Shown piece after piece: positions 44,743-57,231 of a stretch of DNA of 64,000 nucleotides (its first letter is position 1; the number at the start of each line of letters is the position of its first letter). The stretch is taken from NCBI GenBank assembly GCA_047947115.1, contig CP170459.1, forward strand, positions 5,952,001 to 6,016,000, given 5' to 3'. The position numbers and the translations under genes are program-made. Source of the stretch: Verrucomicrobiota bacterium. Lineage in GTDB: Bacteria > Verrucomicrobiota > Verrucomicrobiia > Limisphaerales > AAA164-E04. Below the pieces are notes generated by a model. That model was not told the origin of the DNA and searched no databases. It was given only the letters and a program-made list of their open reading frames with translations.

Positions 44743-46305
44743 TCAATCCGGCGATGCTAATGCACCGGTTGGGCATGAATCGACGGCATCTTTTGCCAAA
44801 TTTCCTAAACCAGCTTCCAGGTTTTTTTCCAAAGAAACGCCTGCGGTCACCTCAAACCCACGTCCCACAAAGGTGAATCCATATTTCTCACCACCATCCT
44901 GCGTTACTCGAACGCAAATCCCACATTTGACACACTTACCGGGCTCATAAACAGCCACGGTACTTTGGTCCATTTTGTTGAATGAGGGCCGATCGTTGAC
45001 TTTGAATTGCATTTGCTTGGCACCGTATTCGTGGCTGTATTCACGCAAACTGCAATCTTTGTTAGCGCGACAGTCACAATGCAAGCAACGACCACTCTCC
45101 TCGTCGGCTTGTTCGGGTGTGATGTCTTTTTCTTTGGCCGCCCGAATCTCCGGGTGAGCATGAGGCGCCGCATGCTTGACGAACAGATCCAGCTCACCTT
45201 CCTGGAGCCTCCCCATCATGTGGTTGTAAATGTCCTCTTCTCCTTGCATGGGTTGCTCCCTCAAACATTGATCCACACAGGCAGCCATTGATTTGGCATT
45301 TTGAATGACTTTCAGAAGGTTCATTTCCGCATTAGCAACCCCACCGCCTGCAAACACGGCTTGTATATTGGTCATATGAGTCTTTCGGTCCGCCTTGACC
45401 CCTTTCTTGGCCAATTCCAGATTCCAGGCTTCAAGTGACTGAGCTGCAGACTCTCCACAAGCGATTACGACCGCATCGAAATGCTCCTTTATTTCCTGGA
45501 ACGCGTCCGCGGTATCAACCCCATGTTTTGTCCGAAATTCCACCCCCATGTTGTTGAGTAAAGAGATTTCCCCATCCAAAGCCCAATCCGGTATTGTCCC
45601 GTTTGTCACTTCTTCCTGAATGGATCCCCCTAATTTATCAGCCTTATCCAGGACCACGCATTGATGCCCCCGCAAGGTCAGGTAATAAGCCGATGCCAGA
45701 CCCGTGGGGCCTCCACCAATGATGCAGACTTTTTTGCCCGTTGGCTCAGCACAAGGTATGGCGTATGCCTTTCCTTCGCGCAAGTGCCAATCAGCAACGT
45801 GACGCGACATGTGTTGAATGGCAATTGGATCATCATGCAATCCGCGGCGACATCCTTTTTCGCAGGGCGCATGGCACATTCGCTCAAGAATACTTGCAAG
45901 CGCCACGTCAGATCGAACGGTCAGGACGGCATCTTCCATCCGGTTGTCACCCACTTCTCTCAACATCTTTGGAATTTCCGAATGCACGGCGCAAAGACGT
46001 TGGCACGGGGCTTCACAATCTCCCACATGCTCACTGAGCAAAAGTTCCAGAGTTGATTTACGGAATTCCCGGATGCTTTCGGCCTGTGTTTCGATATCCA
46101 TTCCATCAGCTACTTTGGCAGAACACGCAGGCATGGTCCTTCCAGACGCATTGTCTTTCACCACACAAATCATACAAGAGGTGAAATATTCGTGGCCTTC
46201 CTTATAGCAGAGTACGGGGATCTCGATCCCAACTTTGGCTGCAGCCTGAATGATGGTTAAATCCTCGTCCGTTTCGATTTCCTGGTTATCGATTTTAAAT
46301 TTCAT
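44743..46305 (-). CDS. NuoG/HydA-like Fe-S subunit with an inserted, shortened GltD-like flavoprotein domain
   Basis: [2Fe-2S] C-x10-C-x2-C-x13-C; EHVGDCEAPC..C; CHAPCEKGC; IIGGGPTG; RCLHCDC-x5-C; CVKCGIC...CPTGAL. Confidence 0.85.
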   Translation of the reverse strand: MKFKIDNQEIETDEDLTIIQAAAKVGIEIPVLCYKEGHEYFTSCMICVVKDNASGRTMPACSAKVADGMDIETQAESIREFRKSTLELLLSEHVGDCEAPCQRLCAVHSEIPKMLREVGDNRMEDAVLTVRSDVALASILERMCHAPCEKGCRRGLHDDPIAIQHMSRHVADWHLREGKAYAIPCAEPTGKKVCIIGGGPTGLASAYYLTLRGHQCVVLDKADKLGGSIQEEVTNGTIPDWALDGEISLLNNMGVEFRTKHGVDTADAFQEIKEHFDAVVIACGESAAQSLEAWNLELAKKGVKADRKTHMTNIQAVFAGGGVANAEMNLLKVIQNAKSMAACVDQCLREQPMQGEEDIYNHMMGRLQEGELDLFVKHAAPHAHPEIRAAKEKDITPEQADEESGRCLHCDCRANKDCSLREYSHEYGAKQMQFKVNDRPSFNKMDQSTVAVYEPGKCVKCGICVRVTQDGGEKYGFTFVGRGFEVTAGVSLEKNLEAGLGNLAKDAVDSCPTGALASPD

Positions 46306-48707
46306 AGGTCGATGACATGAATGGCGTCAACAGGACACACCTGAAGACAGATATCGCATCGGGTACACGCCGGCTCTTCAATAAGGTGCCGATGATACGG
46401 GTTCATGGGGATGGCATCCACGGGACAGTGCTGAGCACAGCGCGTGCATCCGATACACGATTCATTGATGTAATACTGGGTGAGTTTCGTGCATTTTTTT
46501 GCCGGGCATCGGCCTTGCAAGTGGGCTTCGTATTCATCCCGGTAATATTTCAAACTGGAAAGAACAGGATTTGGGGCCGTTTTGCCCAGACCACACAAGC
46601 TGCCATCCACAGTGATCCCTGCGAGTGCCTCGAGTGTTTCAAGATCCCCTTTCCGACCGCCCCCTTCGCAGAGTCGGTCGAGGATCTCCTTCATGCGTTT
46701 AGTGCCTACGCGGCAATGGGTGCATTTACCACAGGATTCATCCTGGGTGAACTCCATGAAATATCTCGCAATATCCACCATGCAGTCGGTTTCATCCAGC
46801 ACCACCATCCCCCCTGACCCCATGATGGCCCCTACGGACCGCAAAGCTTCGTAGTCGACAGGTGTGTGGCATAGATTGGCGGGAACACAACCTCCCGAAG
46901 GCCCGCCCATCAGCACAGCCTTGAGCTTGCGTCCATTTGGAACACCTCCCCCGATATCGTTGACGATTTCGCTGATAGACATGCCCATCGGCACTTCCAC
47001 CAAACCGCCCCGGTTGATCTTACCTGCCAATGCAAAGGTTTTAGTTCCTTTACATTTTTCGGTGCCCCGCACAGAGAATGCTTTGGCACCGTTGCGCATT
47101 AGCCAAGGAATGGTGGCGAGTGTTTCCACATTATTGATGAGTGTGGGCTTGCCCCACAAACCGGACTGAGCGGGGAACGGGGGTCTGAATCTCGGCATTC
47201 CCCTTCCTCCCTCAATGGCAGAAATCATGGCGGTTTCTTCACCGCAAACAAAGGCTCCCGCACCTTCGATTACACGCATTTTAAGGCTTAAAGAACTTCC
47301 GAAAATATTCTCTCCCAGGTAGCCCTTTTCCTCACAAATCTTGATGGCATGACGAATGCGTTCTGTAGCCAGGGGATACTCCGCCCGGATGTAGAATATT
47401 CCCTCATTAGCTCCGATGGCATGAGCGGCTATCGCCATTCCTTCAATAACTCGGTAAGGGAAGGATTCCAGGATCATACGGTCCATGAATGCGCCGGGGT
47501 CCCCTTCGTCGCCATTACAAATGACGTATTTCTTATCACCTGTCGCCGCCCGGGTGAATTTCCACTTTAATCCGGTGGAAAAACCAGCCCCCCCCCTGCC
47601 TCGTAGCCCGCTGGTTTCAATTTCCTTGATGACTTCCTCTGAATCTTCTTTTTCCAGAACGGACTTTAGGGCTTTGAACCCGTCATGAGCCTCGTATTCG
47701 TCGAAACTGGTCGGATTCAATTCCCCCAAATGCTCGGTGACCAAGTGGAATTGAGCTTTGGATCGATCCGCCTCGGCTCCGTGCCGTACATCGTCCGCAT
47801 AACGTGTCGGGGGAGCCCATGCTTCATCCGTAAAAAACTTTTCAAGCCACCCCATCACTCTGGCTCCGGCCTGTTTCAAAAGCCCTGCAGACCGAAAATG
47901 ACTGAGCAGAATTTCGCCCGCCTGATCCGCTTTAACCTTACCGTAACGGTATTTTCGATCCCGGTAAACAACCACCTCCACCAAAGGGGTTTCGTATGAC
48001 AAACCGGTACACCCCACTTGTTTGATACTCACTGGCAGGGCGTTCGAACGGATGGACTGCTTCAACGAGTCATACACCTTGTCGGTCCCACCTGCCACGC
48101 AACTGGAGCACAAACAAATACGCACTTCGCCTGTTGCCTGCTCTATTTTGACACCGTCGTCGTCATTAATATCGGACTGCTTCTTGGTAAGAGCTTTGAA
48201 ATCCTTGATAAGATCGGGCACTTTCCAGGGCTCCACATCGCCATAAATGACATCATCAATCTGCACCACCGGGGCCAACATGCAGCACCCCAAACAGGCC
48301 ACTTTTTCGGCTGTAAACTCGTTCTTAGGGTCAGTATGGCCTTTGGCCGGAATTTTCAATTCTGTTCGAAAGGTTTCATCCAAGATATTGGCACCACTGA
48401 CATGGCAAGCTGTCCCGACGCATGTCTTGACGATATGTTTGCCCACCGGGTAATGCCTGAACTGGGAATAGAAAGTGGACACACCAGTGACGGCGTCCGG
48501 AGTAATTTCCGAGACTTCACAAAGTCTTTCCAGAGCCGGTTTAGGAAGGTAGTTCCATTTCTTTTGAATGGCCTGCAGCAAAGGGATCAGGTGCTCGGGT
48601 TGATCTCCGATTTCCTTGACCCATTGATCCACCAAGGTGAGATCAATCTGTGGCGTGGTCGAGATGTCGACCGGCTTGGTCTGAGGATCTTGAACTAAAG
48701 TTTCCAT
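46302..48707 (-). CDS. fused NuoE-NuoF (HydC-HydB/BfuC-BfuB-like) NAD(H)-binding FMN/Fe-S protein
   Basis: CVGTAC...CLGCC; CLCSSC...GCTG; GLRGRGGAGF; NGDEGDPGAFMDR; GAGAFVCGEETA; GGPSGG; ESCGKCTHCR...SLCGLG; H-x4-C-x4-C; two C-terminal CxxCxxCxxxCP. Confidence 0.92.
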   Translation of the reverse strand: METLVQDPQTKPVDISTTPQIDLTLVDQWVKEIGDQPEHLIPLLQAIQKKWNYLPKPALERLCEVSEITPDAVTGVSTFYSQFRHYPVGKHIVKTCVGTACHVSGANILDETFRTELKIPAKGHTDPKNEFTAEKVACLGCCMLAPVVQIDDVIYGDVEPWKVPDLIKDFKALTKKQSDINDDDGVKIEQATGEVRICLCSSCVAGGTDKVYDSLKQSIRSNALPVSIKQVGCTGLSYETPLVEVVVYRDRKYRYGKVKADQAGEILLSHFRSAGLLKQAGARVMGWLEKFFTDEAWAPPTRYADDVRHGAEADRSKAQFHLVTEHLGELNPTSFDEYEAHDGFKALKSVLEKEDSEEVIKEIETSGLRGRGGAGFSTGLKWKFTRAATGDKKYVICNGDEGDPGAFMDRMILESFPYRVIEGMAIAAHAIGANEGIFYIRAEYPLATERIRHAIKICEEKGYLGENIFGSSLSLKMRVIEGAGAFVCGEETAMISAIEGGRGMPRFRPPFPAQSGLWGKPTLINNVETLATIPWLMRNGAKAFSVRGTEKCKGTKTFALAGKINRGGLVEVPMGMSISEIVNDIGGGVPNGRKLKAVLMGGPSGGCVPANLCHTPVDYEALRSVGAIMGSGGMVVLDETDCMVDIARYFMEFTQDESCGKCTHCRVGTKRMKEILDRLCEGGGRKGDLETLEALAGITVDGSLCGLGKTAPNPVLSSLKYYRDEYEAHLQGRCPAKKCTKLTQYYINESCIGCTRCAQHCPVDAIPMNPYHRHLIEEPACTRCDICLQVCPVDAIHVIDL

Positions 48708-48709
48708 AG

Positions 48710-50470
48710 TTAACCCTGAATACAGAATAAGTGGGATTCGCCTCGGACGATCATCCCGTTTTTAAATAAGGCCGGGGTACTCAAAACAGGCTCTCCCATG
48801 AAAGAATCCATGTTGCCTTTGAATGCTTCTCCCGTCGTTTCGAACACATGTGCGTAGCCGCCTCGATCGAACAGATACACCTTCTGCCCAATCCTCACCG
48901 GAGAAGAATAAAAACCGTGATCGGTCACCTCATACCACATCTCTTCCCCGTTATCGGCGTTCAGGCAGACGATTCCACCGTCACCCATCCCACCGAAATA
49001 CAAATTGTTGTGAACGATAGGAGAGGATATTCCGGGAGTGGTATCGCGATTCGACCAAAGCACCTCCTGAGTGGAAATATCAACAGCAGCAACATGCACG
49101 TAGTCAGCGGCAATATACAGGCGGCCATTGGCATAGTAGGGCGAAGGAGCAATTTCGCCTCCTTCCAGACACTCAATTTCCCAGATAAGCGCCCCATCAT
49201 CAACATTGTACAACGACAAGGTAGGTTCGGATGCCAGGGCCATAACGGACTTTCCTTCCCATTCGAATAATAGAGGAGAAGCCCAGGAAGCACCGTTGGT
49301 GCGATCCTTTTTCCAGCGCTCCTTGCCGGTGGCAGCATCATACGCAGCAACAAAACTGTGCTCTTCACGGTCCAACTGGATCAACACCAGATCACCATAG
49401 ACCTGAGGAGACGATGAATAACCGTAAGGATTGACCGGATTCCCCATGTGCACCGTCCACTTGAGTTCACCGTCCAACGTCACACCAGCAAGATCTCCAT
49501 TGGCGTATACGGCATAAACCATTGCACCATTACATGCCAATGTTGGGGCAGCGTAACCAGTATCCTCGGTAACTTCAGGAGGTTCCCCGGATTCTTTAGT
49601 GGTTGGGACTCCAGTTCGCCAAAGCTGTTTACCATCCTCCAAAGTGAAGCAAGCCACTTCACGTTTTTCTTCGTCAGCGCCGGTAAGGAATATTTTATCC
49701 TCCCAGATGATAGGAGAATTGAAGCCGACAAGGTCCAATTCGACTTTCCAGTGAATGCCATCCCCGGTTTCCCCATTCCAGGATTCAGGAAGTTGGACTT
49801 CATCCATCCAAGCATCATATCTTCCCAGGAATACCGCCCAATTCTGTCGGATCTGTTCGGAAGTGGCGAATTGGATGGAAGGAGCGGCGGGGGTTTGATC
49901 CGCAAATTCGGTTTCGCTGCTGGCGAGTGACGGGGGGCCATCCAGTTCTGCGTTTTCGGAAGGCACGGGCTCATCCAATGGACTTTTCCAAGGCAAGGCC
50001 AAGGACAAGGCGAACCCTGCCAGACAAAGCCCGGTGACGGTCACGGATTTTCTTGCCCACCTTGCCTGCTCGCGTGGATCATCCTTGGGATCACTTGAAT
50101 CGGGAAAGGGATGGTTAGCCTCATATGCTTCGATCAATTTGAAGCAAGCGAGCATCACCGCAAGACTGCCAACCAGCAGGTAGATCCCACGGTGATTGAA
50201 TTCCTGACTGGCAAAGAAAGCCTTGCGACCCAGTTGGTCCATTTGCTGGATCTGTAAGCGTAACTCCTCATTGCGTGGATCCTGATTCAACTGCTCAATC
50301 AAAGCTTCCAGTGAAGCGGAATGGACGGGGTCGGAACGATTCAGCATCGCCCGGTTTGCGATCATCAGCACACAGGTCACCACAGCCAATACGGCGGAAA
50401 CCCATCCTAATATTTTGATTATCTTATATGCTGCTGAATTTCGGTCCTTCTCAAGAACAACCACTCTCAT
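48710..50470 (-). CDS. multi-TM-anchored PQQ-like beta-propeller protein
   Basis: Three N-terminal hydrophobic helices, then repeats such as SPIIWEDKIF, SSPQVYGD, ASPLL, G-x-x-x-W. Confidence 0.8.
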   Translation of the reverse strand: MRVVVLEKDRNSAAYKIIKILGWVSAVLAVVTCVLMIANRAMLNRSDPVHSASLEALIEQLNQDPRNEELRLQIQQMDQLGRKAFFASQEFNHRGIYLLVGSLAVMLACFKLIEAYEANHPFPDSSDPKDDPREQARWARKSVTVTGLCLAGFALSLALPWKSPLDEPVPSENAELDGPPSLASSETEFADQTPAAPSIQFATSEQIRQNWAVFLGRYDAWMDEVQLPESWNGETGDGIHWKVELDLVGFNSPIIWEDKIFLTGADEEKREVACFTLEDGKQLWRTGVPTTKESGEPPEVTEDTGYAAPTLACNGAMVYAVYANGDLAGVTLDGELKWTVHMGNPVNPYGYSSSPQVYGDLVLIQLDREEHSFVAAYDAATGKERWKKDRTNGASWASPLLFEWEGKSVMALASEPTLSLYNVDDGALIWEIECLEGGEIAPSPYYANGRLYIAADYVHVAAVDISTQEVLWSNRDTTPGISSPIVHNNLYFGGMGDGGIVCLNADNGEEMWYEVTDHGFYSSPVRIGQKVYLFDRGGYAHVFETTGEAFKGNMDSFMGEPVLSTPALFKNGMIVRGESHLFCIQG

Positions 50471-51870
50471 GACATCGTAACCTTTTCTTTCTTCCCAGAT
50501 TTTTCAGCCGGTGCCTGCGGTTGCATCAAAATTGCCTGAGAAGCTTCAAAGGCCGGAGTCCCCGGCACAAAATTTGGCCTGTGCATATCATCACTCGGGC
50601 AATAAGAACAACAGCGACCGCAGCTGTAGCAATCTGATTTGCGCACCTCATAGCCTACCTGGGTTCGTGATAAGGAGACATTGATCAGTTTCACCCCAAA
50701 AACCAAGCCAATAAAACCGCCAAGCAACCAACCGCCCGTGCTCATCTGTGAACGAATCTGTGCTGCTTTGCTGAACAAGTCCTCTTCAGTCTGACCTTTA
50801 GCTCGAAAAGTGTCCGACTCTATCGTTGTTGGCATATTAGAATCCTGCTTTTCCAGAACAATCTGTTCGGCCAAAGCAACCGTGCGGTGCTGCCTGCTCA
50901 AGGGTTCGGCCATACGGTAACCGATCCAACCACAAAGCAGAATCAACACAGGCACCATTACAAACAGGTAACCGAGACGATGGGCACCCGAATGGCGATC
51001 TTCCTTGGTCAAGCCGGCGTTGGGCTTGTCAATGGCGTCGAACGGACAGGATTCTTCGCACAAACGGCAGTCAATGCACACAGTTGGCGTGATGGATAAA
51101 TGCCACCTTGCGAAGCGAGACATCCAGCCCAGCAACACCCCGTAAGGACAGAAAAAGCGACAATATGGACGTGCTACGAACATTCCTACCAGAAGAAACC
51201 CGGCCCCCAGATAAAGGTAAGGAGCATGACCATTGAGACGGAAGAAACCAATGAAAGGGTCGTATTTACAAATCGCCATGCCGGCGTTGGTAGCCGAAAG
51301 TAGCACAGCGGTCCCCAAATAGATATAGGGAATCATGCTCAATCCGGTCGTCACTTTCTTGGGCAACTGAATGGGTTTGAGCACGACAAGATCCTGAATT
51401 GCCCCGAGGGCGCAGACCGATGCACAAAAAACACGTCCGAAGAAGAGTGAATAGGCAAGCGGCAGCAGGAAGAAAATCATCACTGTCACCGGAATGGCAT
51501 AGTGCACATTAAAAATGGACATGGTCACATTCTGAATCGATCCGATCGGGCAGACACAACCTTGCTTGTAGAACCCAAAATACCCCAAACTAAACAGCAT
51601 CAACCAGAAAAGGCCTTTCCGCGTTCTTAATTTGATAGCGAACAGGGCTCCGAGACTCAAAGTTGTAGCGAGCACCAGAACATCCACCCATTGCTGCCAC
51701 TCCTGAGTCGGTTCTGGGATCGTGGTTTCAGGGAATGTATATTCACTGACAAACTCCGGAGCTGGAAAGCGCATTTCGCCAGCTTGAGAAGACTCAGGCC
51801 ATCCCAAGTATACTCCGAGCAGGAGGACAGCAGCAAAAATCGCGTTCTTTTTGAGTAAGGAAAAAATCAT
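50467..51870 (-). CDS. integral-membrane 4Fe-4S protein (NapH/RdxA/NosR-C-terminal-like)
   Basis: CVCPIG, GRVFCASVCALG, RPYCRFFCPYG, CIDCRLCEESCP, CYSCGRCCSYCP; multiple TM helices. Confidence 0.85.
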   Translation of the reverse strand: MIFSLLKKNAIFAAVLLLGVYLGWPESSQAGEMRFPAPEFVSEYTFPETTIPEPTQEWQQWVDVLVLATTLSLGALFAIKLRTRKGLFWLMLFSLGYFGFYKQGCVCPIGSIQNVTMSIFNVHYAIPVTVMIFFLLPLAYSLFFGRVFCASVCALGAIQDLVVLKPIQLPKKVTTGLSMIPYIYLGTAVLLSATNAGMAICKYDPFIGFFRLNGHAPYLYLGAGFLLVGMFVARPYCRFFCPYGVLLGWMSRFARWHLSITPTVCIDCRLCEESCPFDAIDKPNAGLTKEDRHSGAHRLGYLFVMVPVLILLCGWIGYRMAEPLSRQHRTVALAEQIVLEKQDSNMPTTIESDTFRAKGQTEEDLFSKAAQIRSQMSTGGWLLGGFIGLVFGVKLINVSLSRTQVGYEVRKSDCYSCGRCCSYCPSDDMHRPNFVPGTPAFEASQAILMQPQAPAEKSGKKEKVTMS

Positions 51871-51891
51871 GTTGGCACCTGTTGGTAAATG

Positions 51892-52506
51892 TTACTCAGG
51901 GAGGTTGAACACATCTTCCATGGTTTCCTCGCGTTCTTTGTGCCTCAGCAGATAGGGTTTATCGGCCGGCAACCGCTCCCAGGCATCGGCCGGACACTGC
52001 ATGGCAATGGAACATTCATTGCAGTTCACACAGACGTTATGTCTGACCTGCAGGTAGAAGGAGGCATTCCCGAACATCTCGCAGGCTTTGACACATTTGG
52101 CGCAGCCGATGCAGTAATCTTCCAGAATGTTGTATTCCCAATAGGGATCTTCTACAAAAAGTCGTTCAATGGCGCCGGTGGGACACAGTTGATTTTCGGC
52201 GGCCGAGGTCAATTCAGGGGCGTTAGGGAGGAAATATCCAAAACACAAACGGCAGTAACCACAGATGGGATAAGACTGAACACACTTAACGGCGGATGGA
52301 GAAACGACACAATCGGTCGCGCAATGCTCACACTGAACGCACTTGTCAGGGTCAATCTGCCAAACCGTATTTTGTTCGCGCGCCCCAAATACGGACATGC
52401 CCCCCATCCAGCCAAGCGTTAATGCGGCACCTCTGCCGACAGCTTGTTTGATAAAATCAAAGCGATTTAATTGGTCCGACGATTCATTCGATTTTGCATC
52501 AGCCAT
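51892..52506 (-). CDS. multi-cluster 4Fe-4S ferredoxin with a Tat-like leader
   Basis: NRFDFIK plus hydrophobic stretch; CVQCEHCATDC, CGYCRLC, CPTGAI, CIGCAKCVKAC, CVNCNEC..CP. Confidence 0.85.
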   Translation of the reverse strand: MADAKSNESSDQLNRFDFIKQAVGRGAALTLGWMGGMSVFGAREQNTVWQIDPDKCVQCEHCATDCVVSPSAVKCVQSYPICGYCRLCFGYFLPNAPELTSAAENQLCPTGAIERLFVEDPYWEYNILEDYCIGCAKCVKACEMFGNASFYLQVRHNVCVNCNECSIAMQCPADAWERLPADKPYLLRHKEREETMEDVFNLPE

Positions 52507-52521
52507 AGTTTTTACTCCGTA

Positions 52522-54015
52522 TTATTGATTCAGTGTCAGATTGTTCGATCCCCCGGAAGCACCCGTACTCATATCCAGGCAAATCAGCATTTTGGAATCC
52601 CGCAAGATGAGTTTCCCCTCGACAATAGCCATGGGAGCCCAAGCGTCATGGCCGGGAGCCACTTCCGCGAACCCAAGTTTTTGAAAACCATCCAGACTGG
52701 CCTTGGCCATGGTCAATTCACCGTTGTCGTTGAGAATGTAAACTTTGTCATCAGCGATCATGTAAGGACCCAAACCGAATCGCTCGGTTTTGCCGCTGCT
52801 CCATACAACATTTCCCTCAAGATCCATGCAGACGAACTGGCCACGCATGGCTCCAGCGTCTTTGGGAAGAATGGAGAACAGATGGTTTTGGTAGAAAATG
52901 GGAGTCTGCTGTTCGCATGCAAATATCGTTTTATCCAGCTTGAATAGCGGCTTGGGAATGATCTTCCCCCCATCTTCCTTGAAGCCCATCATCATACTCC
53001 CCCCGCCATAACCGGCGGTAAAGAATACCTTGTCAGGCGCAACCCCGATAGGAGATGGCGACAACACATTTTGCGCCCAGTCCGAAGATTTCCAAAGGAG
53101 TTCACCCTTGGTGTCCGGCTCGGCAGATACGCCGACAACACCATTTTGTGAGCAGTAAACGTAGGTTTGCTTACCAAGAATCTCCATCTTCATGATGGAA
53201 GAGTGGGACATTTTCCATTGATCCTCATTGGTGGTGGTCCAATTGACCGCACCCGTCGCCAGATCCACGCCCATCATCATCGTGGTGCCGGAAGGTGCCA
53301 CAATGGCCTCATCTCCATCAATCAGAGGACACTGCCCCGTATACCATAGTGGAACGCTGGTTCCGTAATCCTTCACGAGGTCCAATCCCCAGACAAAATC
53401 ACCCGTCTTCGCCCGCACACACATGACAAAACAACGCGGCCCCATGGTGACCACGTAATCCTTGGTCAAAGCAGGAACCGTTCTTGAAACACCGTGATTA
53501 TTCTTGGTAGGGGCTTTGTAACGGCGTCGCCAGATCTCGATGCCGGTGTCCAGTGAGAAACACCTAAGAGTATCCCCTTGATATTCCTTATCGTAGTCCA
53601 GAATATAAACACAGCCCTGATCAACCGCCACACCTGCGTGCCCTTCGCCCATGGGAACGCTCCACAACTGAGTAGGACCTCCGGGAGGCCAGGTTTCAGA
53701 TAAGGGAACGGAGTCCTTGGCGATGTTATCAGCATCAGCTCCTCGAAATCCTTTCCATGTGCCTGCGGATGTGCCAAATTCACCTTCAAGCTTTTCAAAC
53801 TCACCCTCCAGATCCACGACAACTTCCGCCTTGGGCGCCGCTGCGACACCACCTACCGGCTTGTAAGTTCCGGCTGCGGTTTCCGCGGGAATATCGGTCA
53901 CGCGTGTTGTGATAGGAAGAGAGTTGCCCCCTTGAAACAGGAGGTACAAGAAACCCGCCGCAACCCCCGTTAAAAGGGTCATGGCATAAAAAGTCAGTTG
54001 TCGATCAGTAACCAT
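52522..54015 (-). CDS. membrane-anchored PQQ-like beta-propeller protein
   Basis: N-terminal TM helix; WKGFRG family motif; repeated G-x-x-x-W blades. Confidence 0.85.
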   Translation of the reverse strand: MVTDRQLTFYAMTLLTGVAAGFLYLLFQGGNSLPITTRVTDIPAETAAGTYKPVGGVAAAPKAEVVVDLEGEFEKLEGEFGTSAGTWKGFRGADADNIAKDSVPLSETWPPGGPTQLWSVPMGEGHAGVAVDQGCVYILDYDKEYQGDTLRCFSLDTGIEIWRRRYKAPTKNNHGVSRTVPALTKDYVVTMGPRCFVMCVRAKTGDFVWGLDLVKDYGTSVPLWYTGQCPLIDGDEAIVAPSGTTMMMGVDLATGAVNWTTTNEDQWKMSHSSIMKMEILGKQTYVYCSQNGVVGVSAEPDTKGELLWKSSDWAQNVLSPSPIGVAPDKVFFTAGYGGGSMMMGFKEDGGKIIPKPLFKLDKTIFACEQQTPIFYQNHLFSILPKDAGAMRGQFVCMDLEGNVVWSSGKTERFGLGPYMIADDKVYILNDNGELTMAKASLDGFQKLGFAEVAPGHDAWAPMAIVEGKLILRDSKMLICLDMSTGASGGSNNLTLNQ

Positions 54016-54170
54016 TTGAGATGCCTCACAATAATTCCCTTGATCTTTCTGTCAATGGGTTGAATGATGATAAGTAGTCATCGATTAAATGCCAACGTGA
54101 TTTACCTTGCCGTAACGGACGTGTGGTTGTAAAACAAAAAAGGGTCAATTAAAACCAAAAATGATTAGCC

Positions 54171-55220
54171 ATGGCCGATATTAAATCACTAGCTCGACGG
54201 GGTTTTCTTTCGGGAGCACTTGTAACCGCAGGAGCAGCAGTAGGATGGATGTTCCGTAAATCTCAGAACCCACGACGTCCGGCACGGCAGAATCAAAGCC
54301 TCGACAAGAGTATTTTTGAGTATGACGTGAGCGAATACATGCAAACCGATCCGGATTTGCACATGTATGAAGCCGGGAAGGAATTCAAAGTGGACTTTGA
54401 GCGGGTCAAATCGGTGCTCATGACCGACGATGGCGCACTGATCGTGGCAGGCGACCGTAGCATTAAAGGAGTTGGCCGAGATGGAACGACCCAGTTCGAA
54501 CTCCCCCTCAGTCGTCCTCCCCACTGCATGGCCATCACGGAGCAGGGTCTCCTATGGGTTGGGTTGGGGCGATACTGTGAAGCTTACGATTTAAAAACGC
54601 TCGATAAGAGATTTAAAACCGACCAGTTGGGTGAAAAGTCTTACATCACCTCCATGCAGGCTTACGAGGACAGGGTTTATGTAGCGGACGCCGGACTTCG
54701 AGAAATGGTGGTATTGAAAGCTGAGTCGGGAGAGGAACTGTTTCGATTTGGTAAAAAGACGGAAACCAATCCCGGTTTCAATGTTCCAAGCCCTTACTTT
54801 GATTTTGTTATTGGCAGGGACTTGAAACTGCATATTTCCAATCCCGGACTCCTTCGTGTGGAGACCTACACACTGAATGGTACATTCGAAAGCAGCTGGG
54901 GCAAACCCGGCATGAAGGCGGATGCGTTTTGTGGATGCTGTAATCCGGTTTACCTAACACAACTCACCAACGGGGATTTTGTCACCAGTGAAAAAGGCCT
55001 GGCCAGACTGCATGTCTATTCCGAACAAGGGGAATTCAAAGGCGTGGTGGCTGATCCGAACCACATGATACCTGATGAAGCTCTAGCAAAGAAAGCTTGC
55101 GGGGATTGCACCAAAGGCCACGGTTTTGACCTTGCTTCGGATGAATCCGGCAATGTGTTCGTGCTCGACCCCATCCAACAGAGCATTCGGGTTTTTGAAC
55201 CCTCACCCAAATTGACTTAA
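54171..55220 (+). CDS. Tat-signal NHL-like beta-propeller protein with an FCGCCNP motif
   Basis: ARRGFL plus hydrophobic helix; VYVADAG, FVTSEKG and VFVLD blades; FCGCCNP and CGDC. Confidence 0.7.
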   Translation: MADIKSLARRGFLSGALVTAGAAVGWMFRKSQNPRRPARQNQSLDKSIFEYDVSEYMQTDPDLHMYEAGKEFKVDFERVKSVLMTDDGALIVAGDRSIKGVGRDGTTQFELPLSRPPHCMAITEQGLLWVGLGRYCEAYDLKTLDKRFKTDQLGEKSYITSMQAYEDRVYVADAGLREMVVLKAESGEELFRFGKKTETNPGFNVPSPYFDFVIGRDLKLHISNPGLLRVETYTLNGTFESSWGKPGMKADAFCGCCNPVYLTQLTNGDFVTSEKGLARLHVYSEQGEFKGVVADPNHMIPDEALAKKACGDCTKGHGFDLASDESGNVFVLDPIQQSIRVFEPSPKLT

Positions 55221-55250
55221 CCAAAACTAACCGCTTAAAAACCGAATAGT

Positions 55251-55508
55251 ATGAGCGAAAACCAATCAAAAGCAGAAAACAGTCTCCCAAGACGCCAGTG
55301 GATAGCCAAGGCGGCTCGATCGGTCATCGTGACCGCCATGGCTGCATTCGGCCTTGGACAGGTTTACAAAGCGAGAAAACTGGCAAACGACCCTAATTGC
55401 GTGCGGCTCTACACCTGCAATGACTGTATCGAGTATGGCGGCTGCGAACTGGATAAGGCGGTCGCATTCCGAAAGACGCAGGATAAGCCGGCATCAAACA
55501 ACAGCTGA
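55251..55508 (+). CDS. small Tat-like-leader protein with a four-Cys motif
   Basis: PRRQWI plus hydrophobic helix; C-x5-C-x2-C-x5-C (CVRLYTCNDCIEYGGC). Confidence 0.7.
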   Translation: MSENQSKAENSLPRRQWIAKAARSVIVTAMAAFGLGQVYKARKLANDPNCVRLYTCNDCIEYGGCELDKAVAFRKTQDKPASNNS

Positions 55509-55525
55509 ACACGAGCAAAGCGGGC

Positions 55526-56608
55526 TCAAGCCCAAGCGCTTCTCAGCACATTGAGAAAATTGCCGTGAAACACCGAACGGATTTGATCCACCGTGTATCC
55601 TCTTTCTGCAAGGATGCTTTCCAGATTTTGGAGATCAGCGATGGATTGCACGTCTCCAGGACATTGTTCCGTACCATATCCCCCGTCCAGATCTGATCCG
55701 ATGCCGACGTGGTTCGCATTACCTGCCAGCTGACAAATATGATCGACGTGATCAATGATGCGTTCGAGTTTTAAATCTACTGATTGAGGGGTGGTGACCC
55801 CTCTCTCCCACCCGACGTGCATCATCCAGGCGTCAAATACCATTCCGATCACTCCGTTTCGTTGAATGATAGCCTTGAGCTGCTCATCATTGAGTTGTCG
55901 CTGGTGAGGTATGATGGATCGACAGTTGCAATGACTTGCCCAAACCGCTCCGCTGAAGATGTCCATAGCTTCCCAAAACGCCTCATCGGACAAGTGGGTG
56001 AGGTCCAGAATCATCCCCAAGCGATCCATTTCGCGCAGCAGATCTTTGCCCGCCTGGCTCAGCCCCCCTTCTGCTCCAGTCCCGGGAGCATACGTTCCCG
56101 GGCCATAATGCCCCAACCCCAGGGCCCGTAGCCCAGACTCGTAGCTGCGCTCCAGATAGGACAAATTCACCATCGAATCAGCCCCTTCCAGGCTGAGAAT
56201 GTAACCGATCGGAAGTTGGTTATGACTACCGGAATCGACACTTGATGAAAACCATTTACCAAGATGTTTCTCCAATTGGTCTAGATCGGTAATCTGCACC
56301 AATTCTCCCTGTTCCTCCATGACTCGATACCAAGCCAGTTGGGCCTGGGTCTGAGCCCAAGCCTGCTCGGGAGAATGCCAACCCGAGAGTTTGCTGCCCG
56401 GCTTGACATAGCGCGCGATCTGTGTTGCTACGCACAAACCAATCTGGCCTCTGCGCATTTCCGGAAAGGTCAACACACCATTGCCTCGATCCGGCTTATC
56501 GGTCCAGGCCGATTCCCGCTCTCTAACAGCCTCAACAGGCTGGCGGAGGTCACGATTCCACTCCATGGCATTCATAGCCAAATCCAGATGAGCATCAAGA
56601 AGGAACAT
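55526..56608 (-). CDS. membrane dipeptidase family (peptidase M19) amidohydrolase
   Basis: DAHLD, LSLEGAD, LDLTHL, ASHCN, GIGSDLDG. Confidence 0.9.
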   Translation of the reverse strand: MFLLDAHLDLAMNAMEWNRDLRQPVEAVRERESAWTDKPDRGNGVLTFPEMRRGQIGLCVATQIARYVKPGSKLSGWHSPEQAWAQTQAQLAWYRVMEEQGELVQITDLDQLEKHLGKWFSSSVDSGSHNQLPIGYILSLEGADSMVNLSYLERSYESGLRALGLGHYGPGTYAPGTGAEGGLSQAGKDLLREMDRLGMILDLTHLSDEAFWEAMDIFSGAVWASHCNCRSIIPHQRQLNDEQLKAIIQRNGVIGMVFDAWMMHVGWERGVTTPQSVDLKLERIIDHVDHICQLAGNANHVGIGSDLDGGYGTEQCPGDVQSIADLQNLESILAERGYTVDQIRSVFHGNFLNVLRSAWA

Positions 56609-57231
56609 GCGCGTAAGTTCACTCAAGCAACTTGGAAAGGTCAATGCGAATGTGATTCGACCAAAAAAGTTTCAAATGAAAATTCATTTCTTGCCACCAT
56701 CATCCATGGAAAGGACATGAACAAAAACCTGACCCCAATCATCCATATCTGCATGGACTCAAAGCGGATCAACTTCAATTAGGTAAAGGTAAAATCGGAC
56801 TTGTCGACCGCTTCATTGTTTTCAACCGCTCCGGGCACCTGAACAGGAGACCAGCCGGCATCCCTGCCCCCCCTTCACTCACAGAGGCTTTGCCGTCCAG
56901 CAATGCGTTCACCTCGCCAGTATCGACCAGGCCGCTCCGATCGAACCATTGATCGATTTTTTCGCCGAAATGATCAGCAGCAGAATGCAAAAACATCAGA
57001 TCATCCTAAGAGGAAGCACCTGGGAGCTTGATGTTTGCAAGCAGGCATGCAAAAAACAAAAGGATTCTTGGCTCTCACAGTACGGTGACAGCTCGCAAAA
57101 ACCGGATTTTTAGATATGATCCTCCCTTTGTCATAGGTATGATTAACCGGAGGGGTGATAATCCGAAAAACAGTAGCCAACTATGAAAAAATTGAAAGAG
57201 AACTATCCTTGGGAGCTCAAAGGCACCATCA

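Follow-up and report, generated by a model that had tools for sequence, protein, structure and literature searches.

The propeller gene and its operon

The stretch analysed here (the window) comprises 64,000 nucleotides of contig CP170459.1 (assembly GCA_047947115.1, positions 5,952,001 to 6,016,000), and it comes from a Verrucomicrobiota bacterium whose closest named relatives are likewise Verrucomicrobiota. The subject is a pair of genes on its forward strand, one for a beta-propeller protein of the NHL type and one for a small protein with four cysteines, together with the redox operon that runs away from them on the opposite strand (Table 1). An original prediction, made from the sequence alone, held that both proteins are exported by the twin-arginine translocation (Tat) pathway and that the CGCC site of the propeller may be the metal or iron-sulphur (Fe-S) catalytic centre which the operon otherwise lacks, the small protein being a cluster-bearing partner. 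Its description of the locus was accurate: both open reading frames, both leaders (that of the propeller being ARRGFL at residues 8-13), FCGCCNP, CGDC, the spacing of the four cysteines and the 155-bp gap were all found in place. Judged from gene neighbourhoods, the propeller and the small protein belong to a conserved eight-gene redox operon, which is widespread and unannotated.

Table 1. Features of the propeller locus and the adjoining redox operon, in coordinates of the window
Feature	Position	Strand	Remarks
NfnA-derived BfuA-like subunit	44743..46305	-	Fe-S clusters and FAD motif kept, NADPH-binding domain deleted
BfuC-BfuB (NuoE-NuoF type) fusion	46302..48707	-	C1, FMN site, B1, B2 (including His729), B3 and B4 ligands
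PQQ2	48710..50470	-	three predicted transmembrane helices and BamB/PQQ-like propeller
NapH/NosR-like polytopic membrane Fe-S protein	50467..51870	-	CX3C motifs, two ferredoxin motifs, invariant C105, C107, C201
NapG-like ferredoxin, Tat-type leader	51892..52506	-	16 invariant Cys (four predicted [4Fe-4S]) and Cys75
PQQ1, membrane-anchored BamB/PQQ-like propeller	52522..54015	-	fused to NHL propeller in some genomes
Divergent intergenic region, 155 bp	54016..54170	.	between propeller and PQQ1
NHL beta-propeller, six-bladed, 349 aa	54171..55220	+	N-terminal RR leader or anchor; invariant GCCNP loop
FCGCCNP	54927..54947	+	residues 253-259; vicinal Cys256-Cys257 invariant, Cys254 variable
CGDC	55098..55109	+	residues 310-313; helical insertion of last blade; clade-specific
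85-aa protein, real gene	55251..55508	+	RR leader or helix (PRRQWI), then C-x5-C-x2-C-x5-C

Neighbourhoods were compared in the best 80 of 578 loci from a genome collection; one of the two search patterns that found them contained the cysteine motif, so these loci are not independent with regard to its conservation. An operon gene was present in 79 of the 80, the exception being a 2.7-kb contig, the ferredoxin gene in 73 and the NuoEF fusion in 42 of the 49 loci with room for it, which bears out the proposed link to the redox operon. The usual order is co-directional and reads PQQ1, NHL propeller, small gene, ferredoxin, NapH-like protein, PQQ2, NuoEF fusion and NfnA-like subunit. The divergent layout was met in 11 of the 80 loci and is, by this comparison of gene orders, a local rearrangement, with the propeller and the small gene as displaced members of the operon. 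Fusions of neighbouring genes were found as well, PQQ1 with the NHL propeller in L016 and P0241 and the small protein with the NHL propeller in P0229.

In the divergent intergenic region no conserved sequence was evident by eye among ten relatives, and a promoter scan of it gave matches at chance level. RNA libraries of 20 aquatic studies contain half or more of the sequence words of 50500-55600. In four RNA runs, contigs, which carry neither strand nor level and are not proof of transcription, cover the operon and both genes, and no listed piece spans the intergenic region. In each of these runs a single contig carries both the propeller and the small gene (in one of them the propeller from base 54390 on), a pattern that is no more than a weak hint.

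Genes for a CxxC-bearing GT4 protein, a LolD-type ATPase and a 1100-aa FtsX permease lie upstream in 22-28 of the 80 loci. The window's genome has an FtsX permease with an ABC ATPase (2183827-2187878) and a PQQ-like gene with a GT4 gene bearing a YCxxC motif (4920084-4922609); these two pairs, which flank the operon in other genomes, lie apart from it here. The convergent gene at 55526-56644 encodes an M19 dipeptidase; it was considered as an operon member and rejected, being seen in 0 of the 80 related loci. A complete rRNA operon (16S, two tRNAs, 23S, 5S) occupies 39017-44084 on the reverse strand and starts about 660 bp downstream of the redox operon.

Fold and conserved cysteines of the exported proteins

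Searches of Pfam and NCBIfam gave nothing useful for the propeller or the small gene; no Pfam family matched the propeller at E<=0.1, so that PF01436 (NHL) is not matched on the query itself. Yet a profile built from 62 propeller homologues matches the NHL domains of TRIM3 and TRIM2 (9e-18 for TRIM3), and the structure model (predicted local distance difference test, pLDDT, 90) finds NHL propellers as its best fold matches, the TRIM2 NHL domain with Z 28.9 and a root-mean-square deviation of 2.4 A over 255 aligned residues, so the NHL assignment of the original prediction is correct. PF01436 is carried by 38-56% of the members of the three nearest Atlas clusters. Fold (Z 26-29) and repeat pattern are common to the NHL propellers of TRIM2/3/71 and Brat and to peptidyl-alpha-hydroxyglycine lyase (PAL, 3fw0), whereas the identity to them is about 15% and the query has a CGCC insertion in a repeat loop. 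In the PAL-type lyase histidines are the metal ligands; no such site is indicated here, for no conserved histidine column was found among 150 propeller sequences.

The gene is single-copy in its genome (one contig, 6.08 Mb), and since FxGCCNP occurs once in a six-frame scan of that genome, the motif is not a product of chance. The GCCNP propeller family numbers at least 458 clusters at 50% identity (E<=1e-30), no Pfam or NCBIfam model reaching its cut-off on the query; its short forms, of 208-227 aa, retain GCCNP. In two Latescibacterota loci (L053, L061) the propeller gene is tandemly duplicated. One distant homologue of the propeller (L140:844-1911) reads FCGCHNP, with histidine in place of the second cysteine, and no operon gene lies within the 12 kb examined around it.

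Conservation was followed in a close set, the query with its 120 best matches (121 close relatives), and in a distant set, the query with 149 representatives at 50% identity (150 sequences, one listed fragment omitted), 130 of which are full-length. Among the close relatives FCGCCNP is kept in 118/121, the C-terminal CxxC in 110/121 and the RR-type leader in 116/121. In the distant set C256, C257, N258 and P259 are each present in 150/150 sequences; C254 is found in 90/150, the remaining 40% or so having S, F, V, T, A or G, and a CGDC-like C-terminal CxxC is seen in 9 of the 130 full-length representatives. The expected conservation of the cysteine motifs thus holds for the CC pair and fails for the first cysteine and for CGDC. 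P206, S207, T272, E274, K275 and R279 are other invariant polar residues beside the pair. By profile alignment CGCC is inserted between F and P of an NHL repeat loop, in the model it lies in a coil ahead of strand 261-264, and by the usual propeller geometry this loop would sit on the top face.

The propeller of the window has an RRGFL leader and its genome a TatC, as expected of a Tat substrate. An RR leader required throughout the family, which cytoplasmic loading of a cofactor would lead one to expect, was not observed: an RR-like motif, loosely defined, is present in 40 of the 130 full-length propellers and a strongly hydrophobic N-terminal segment in 88, and the propeller has an RR leader in 35 of the 80 loci. 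The step from Tat export to cofactor loading is in this way not sustained. Nor is a four-cysteine or Fe-S centre in the propeller, as the 150 sequences have two invariant cysteines and not the three or four conserved Cys/His ligands of an Fe-S cluster. With two invariant cysteines and variable leaders, the constant of the family is a vicinal cysteine pair, on a propeller that is probably membrane-anchored and turned outward, and not a four-cysteine cluster site.

The four cysteines of the small protein (C50-x5-C56-x2-C59-x5-C65) form a pattern that occurs 13 times in a six-frame scan of the genome and is unremarkable as a motif alone. No family could be assigned, an Atlas search giving only unnamed clusters; its N-terminal part and the leader of the operon ferredoxin are homologous (probability 96%). 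A homologue lies 3' of the propeller in 61 of 76 untruncated loci (62 pattern matches, one rejected), and among these, chosen by a loose cysteine pattern, the spacing is 5-2-5 in 51 and 5-2-6 in 8. An obligate partnership of the two proteins does not agree with the 15 of 76 loci that are without an accepted small gene and with one genome in which the small gene adjoins PQQ1 and no NHL gene was found. Judged by this gene content, either gene can be lost without the other, and the small gene often is. Rather than an obligate partner of the propeller, the small protein is likely an accessory of the ferredoxin arm, anchored in the membrane and with a Cys4 metal or cluster site.

The cytoplasmic module and the membrane arm

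The best PDB matches of both cytoplasmic proteins are NfnABC/StnABC. By the definitions of the Bfu core and its clusters in PMC9304861, the ligands of C1, B1, B2 (C642, C680, H729, C734, C739), B3 and B4 are present in 39-40 of 40 sequences; for the [2Fe-2S] cluster B5, C203 and C233 are kept in 40/40 and the remaining positions differ between sequences (S237 here). Aligned to NfnA, the A subunit falls into two blocks, with more than 100 residues skipped between them. Each of 39 A sequences has a single glycine-rich motif, and the spacer measures 23-48 residues in the 27 sequences where it could be measured (one further value being a mis-match); in the canonical relatives of NfnA a second GGGNTA motif is present in 4/4, and the spacer is 186-187 residues long in the two measurable ones. 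NADPH binds NfnA beside FAD, according to PMC11829005. Read from these alignments, the NADPH-binding domain has been lost from the NfnA-like subunit family-wide; the NADP(H)-binding domain of Nfn-Bfu (Type 1) BfuA is thus deleted. With this domain gone, the module has no evident third-substrate site of its own, in keeping with the original prediction, and it probably passes its electrons to the membrane protein. In the reduced operons of L122, L124 and L127 the C, B and A parts form one chain of 978-1040 aa with no flavin domain in A, and the same operons carry a shortened, 208-227-aa GCCNP propeller.

Compared with the Nfn-Bfu/StnABC transhydrogenases (PDB 9bov, 9n5u, 8oh5; Bfu family of PMC9304861), the C1 and B1-B4 ligands and the B2 histidine are shared, whereas here C and B are fused and A is without its NADPH domain and, in the reduced operons, without its FAD domain too. 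The Bfu genes of this operon, unlike those of Nfn-Bfu, stand together with genes for three propellers, an exported-type ferredoxin and a membrane Fe-S protein, and no such set is among the functions listed in the sections of PMC9304861 consulted. Elsewhere in the genome (3461083-3464843) the gene after a NuoEF-like gene encodes a molybdopterin enzyme and contains one in-frame TGA; the enzyme is likely a formate dehydrogenase with selenocysteine.

In the membrane arm, the 16 cysteines of the ferredoxin are present in 73/73 sequences, and C149-x3-C153 and C237-x3-C241-P of the membrane protein in 64/64. The latter also matches NosR and scores 40.2 bits with the NapH model TIGR02163, the cut-off of which is 213. 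A Tat-type multi-cluster ferredoxin and a polytopic protein with CX3C(P) and C-terminal ferredoxin motifs are common to the NapGH, NosR and RdhC modules. NapGH passes electrons from menaquinol to periplasmic reductases (PMC5928378 and PMC4585668). In contrast to NapGH, the membrane protein here is far below the NapH cut-off and has the additional invariant C105, C107 and C201, and the operon is without a molybdo- or other known terminal reductase and is usually joined to Bfu genes. No nap genes were found among the recurring neighbours of the 80 loci. Given three genes of the heme-copper oxidase family, TatC and four molybdopterin-family matches in its genome, the organism is not an obligate fermenter.

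PQQ1 has invariant K171, H174, R178, Y225, Q228, H271 and Q369, and its claim to be the seat of the substrate site is no weaker than that of the NHL propeller. Its fold search, useful as a lead only, placed BamB and tetrathionate hydrolase on top at about 15% identity; a search for pqqC in the window's genome was empty, and the control genomes also gave no match. In the PQQ methanol and alcohol dehydrogenases an adjacent cysteine pair on a periplasmic propeller is used in electron transfer; that vicinal disulphide belongs to an eight-bladed PQQ enzyme, whereas the pair discussed here is on a separate six-bladed protein encoded beside PQQ-like propellers. A three-chain prediction of the ferredoxin against the propeller and the small protein scored 0.40, the best control (propeller replaced) 0.13. 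The runs gave 0.00, 0.46 and 0.40, with a contact agreement of at least 45% and a partner pLDDT of at least 72; 116 of 157 solved pairs reach the docking mark, as do 2 of 215 mismatched ones, but those that do so at <=0.60 are only 18 solved pairs and both mismatches. The model in this way lends weak support to a docking of the ferredoxin on the propeller and the small protein.

Distribution and a possible electron conduit

A survey of 301 genomes of the phylum detected the propeller in 33, the ferredoxin in 37 and both in 32; the sole genome with the propeller only carries a paralogous class with its own ferredoxin. In a planctomycete sample, the phylum of a Phycisphaerales genome, 25 of 201 genomes have the propeller. 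Seventeen other genomes have a full-length short A subunit, 16 of them with the ferredoxin and 14 with the propeller. The propeller is rarely seen without ferredoxin and NapH genes, the exceptions within the stretch examined being L114, L140, L142 and L143. The paralogous class (L111-L113, L115, L116) combines a CCNP propeller with a ferredoxin and NapH homologues and is without PQQ1 or the small gene; propeller, ferredoxin and NapH therefore recur as a unit. Its propeller has two CC pairs (xCCGILD and CCNP) and is accompanied by a cysteine-rich PhnD-like solute-binding protein. In L113 this class stands directly downstream of a HydABC-like [FeFe]-hydrogenase cluster, and at L143:7129-10292 a two-CC propeller is followed by a fusion of a cysteine-rich PhnD-like protein with a PQQ-like propeller, with no ferredoxin or NapH gene in 16 kb.

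The sequences establish that the two genes belong to the operon, that gene fusions exist, which fold the propeller has, which cysteines are invariant, that the Bfu cluster ligands are kept and that the NADPH domain is gone. The explanation that suits these findings best, and to which we would give close to an even chance, is that the operon is a transmembrane electron conduit in which the CC pair acts as a periplasmic dithiol/disulphide or metal-thiolate relay fed by the ferredoxin. NADH and reduced ferredoxin would deliver electrons to BfuCB (FMN, C1, B1-B5), which would hand them to the clusters of the BfuA-like subunit; from there they would reach the cytoplasmic Fe-S clusters of the NapH-like protein, its CX3C motifs and membrane cysteines, then the periplasmic four-cluster NapG-like protein, and in the end the Cys256/Cys257 pair of the NHL protein together with the conserved PQQ1 pocket. 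A putative periplasmic acceptor would be reduced there, and to name a sulphur or disulphide compound is a guess. Slightly more tentative is the idea that this is an undescribed branch of the electron-bifurcating Bfu family, derived from NfnABC by loss of the NADPH site, its third reaction having moved across the membrane over a NapGH-like wire to the propellers; NADH/ferredoxin confurcation would then be linked to a vicinal-dithiol NHL propeller and PQQ-like propellers.

Several observations weigh against such a conduit. The propeller profile matched none of the five ferredoxin-only genomes, one of which is a single contig and 94% complete, while it matched 5/5 other genomes. These five genomes retain PQQ1, and two of them also NuoEF and the short NfnA elsewhere; as no NHL gene was found there, either the CC relay is dispensable in them or their systems are decaying, and a role of the propeller as indispensable catalyst is not supported. 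The periplasmic arm is kept at L149-L151 with no Bfu genes within the 20 kb examined and no short NfnA listed for these genomes, and 7 of the 49 loci with room are without NuoEF; the membrane arm is thus able to stand without Bfu and, as NapGH does, may take its electrons from quinol. The sampled genomes are moreover kin and not independent samples. A selenocysteine at the second cysteine was sought, and the seven metagenome TGA matches were all due to chance; no in-gene stop was seen in the propeller in the phylum searches, and the window's genome has a TGA-containing molybdopterin enzyme, yet its propeller has cysteine. A single flagged TGA (G476) was rejected as in-gene because it lies outside an intact open reading frame.

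It is now improbable that CGCC, CGDC and the small protein together make up the catalytic centre of the operon, with Fe-S or metal inserted ahead of Tat export. The invariance of the pair and of the polar residues flanking it would suit such a centre, as would a cytoplasmic module with no third-substrate site, the fusion of small and NHL proteins and the CH in place of CC in L140, a swap fitting metal ligation, and a mononuclear metal site of two thiolates and E274 is conceivable; against this stand the presence of only two invariant cysteines, the rarity of CGDC (9/130) and of RR-like leaders (40/130), the want of a conserved histidine, the five genomes with other operon genes in which the propeller was not found, and the independent loss of small gene and propeller.

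A reverse flow appears just as doubtful. Here the periplasmic propellers would oxidise a low-potential organic substrate and the inward electrons would reduce NAD+ and ferredoxin by bifurcation, PQQ1 being the catalyst with a putative cofactor and the CC pair of the NHL protein an accessory redox site. PQQ1 is the most constant periplasmic member, with an invariant K/H/R/Y/Q set that includes two histidines; PQQ-type dehydrogenases are among its fold matches, and the GT4, LolD-type ATPase and FtsX genes might serve to make or export a cofactor. However, PQQ1 shares only about 15% identity with any solved propeller, and NapGH-type modules are described as sending electrons outward, to periplasmic reductases (PMC5928378 and PMC4585668). 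The least probable reading gives the arm a maintenance or metal-handling role comparable to that of NosR or CcoG, in which electrons keep periplasmic cysteine proteins or a metal reduced and the CC pair binds that metal ion: the match of the membrane protein to NosR, the co-occurring FtsX/ABC genes and the paralogous class with two CC pairs and a PhnD-like protein speak for it, but no metal transporter, multicopper enzyme or metal regulator is among the neighbour families recurring in the 80 loci, and the window's genome is without a close homologue of the PhnD-like protein.

In the literature searched, which covered few subscription papers, nothing was found on FCGCCNP or on this combination of genes, and term searches of the available text of PMC13608581 and bioRxiv 10.64898/2026.07.10.737718 gave nothing on the operon. 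The system combines known kinds, Bfu and NapGH-like, in an arrangement not found in that literature. Unassigned third reactions are predicted for the Bfu family, of which PMC9304861 names 17 clades without obvious function, and the membrane-bound types listed there are the proton-pumping Nuo and Mbh complexes. The GCCNP propeller family is a good marker for the redox system. Were the conduit to prove true, a redox function would follow for some of the numerous orphan BamB-like propellers in PVC bacteria, and a periplasm-wired Bfu would be a new route by which facultative and anaerobic PVC bacteria may spend or gain low-potential electrons.
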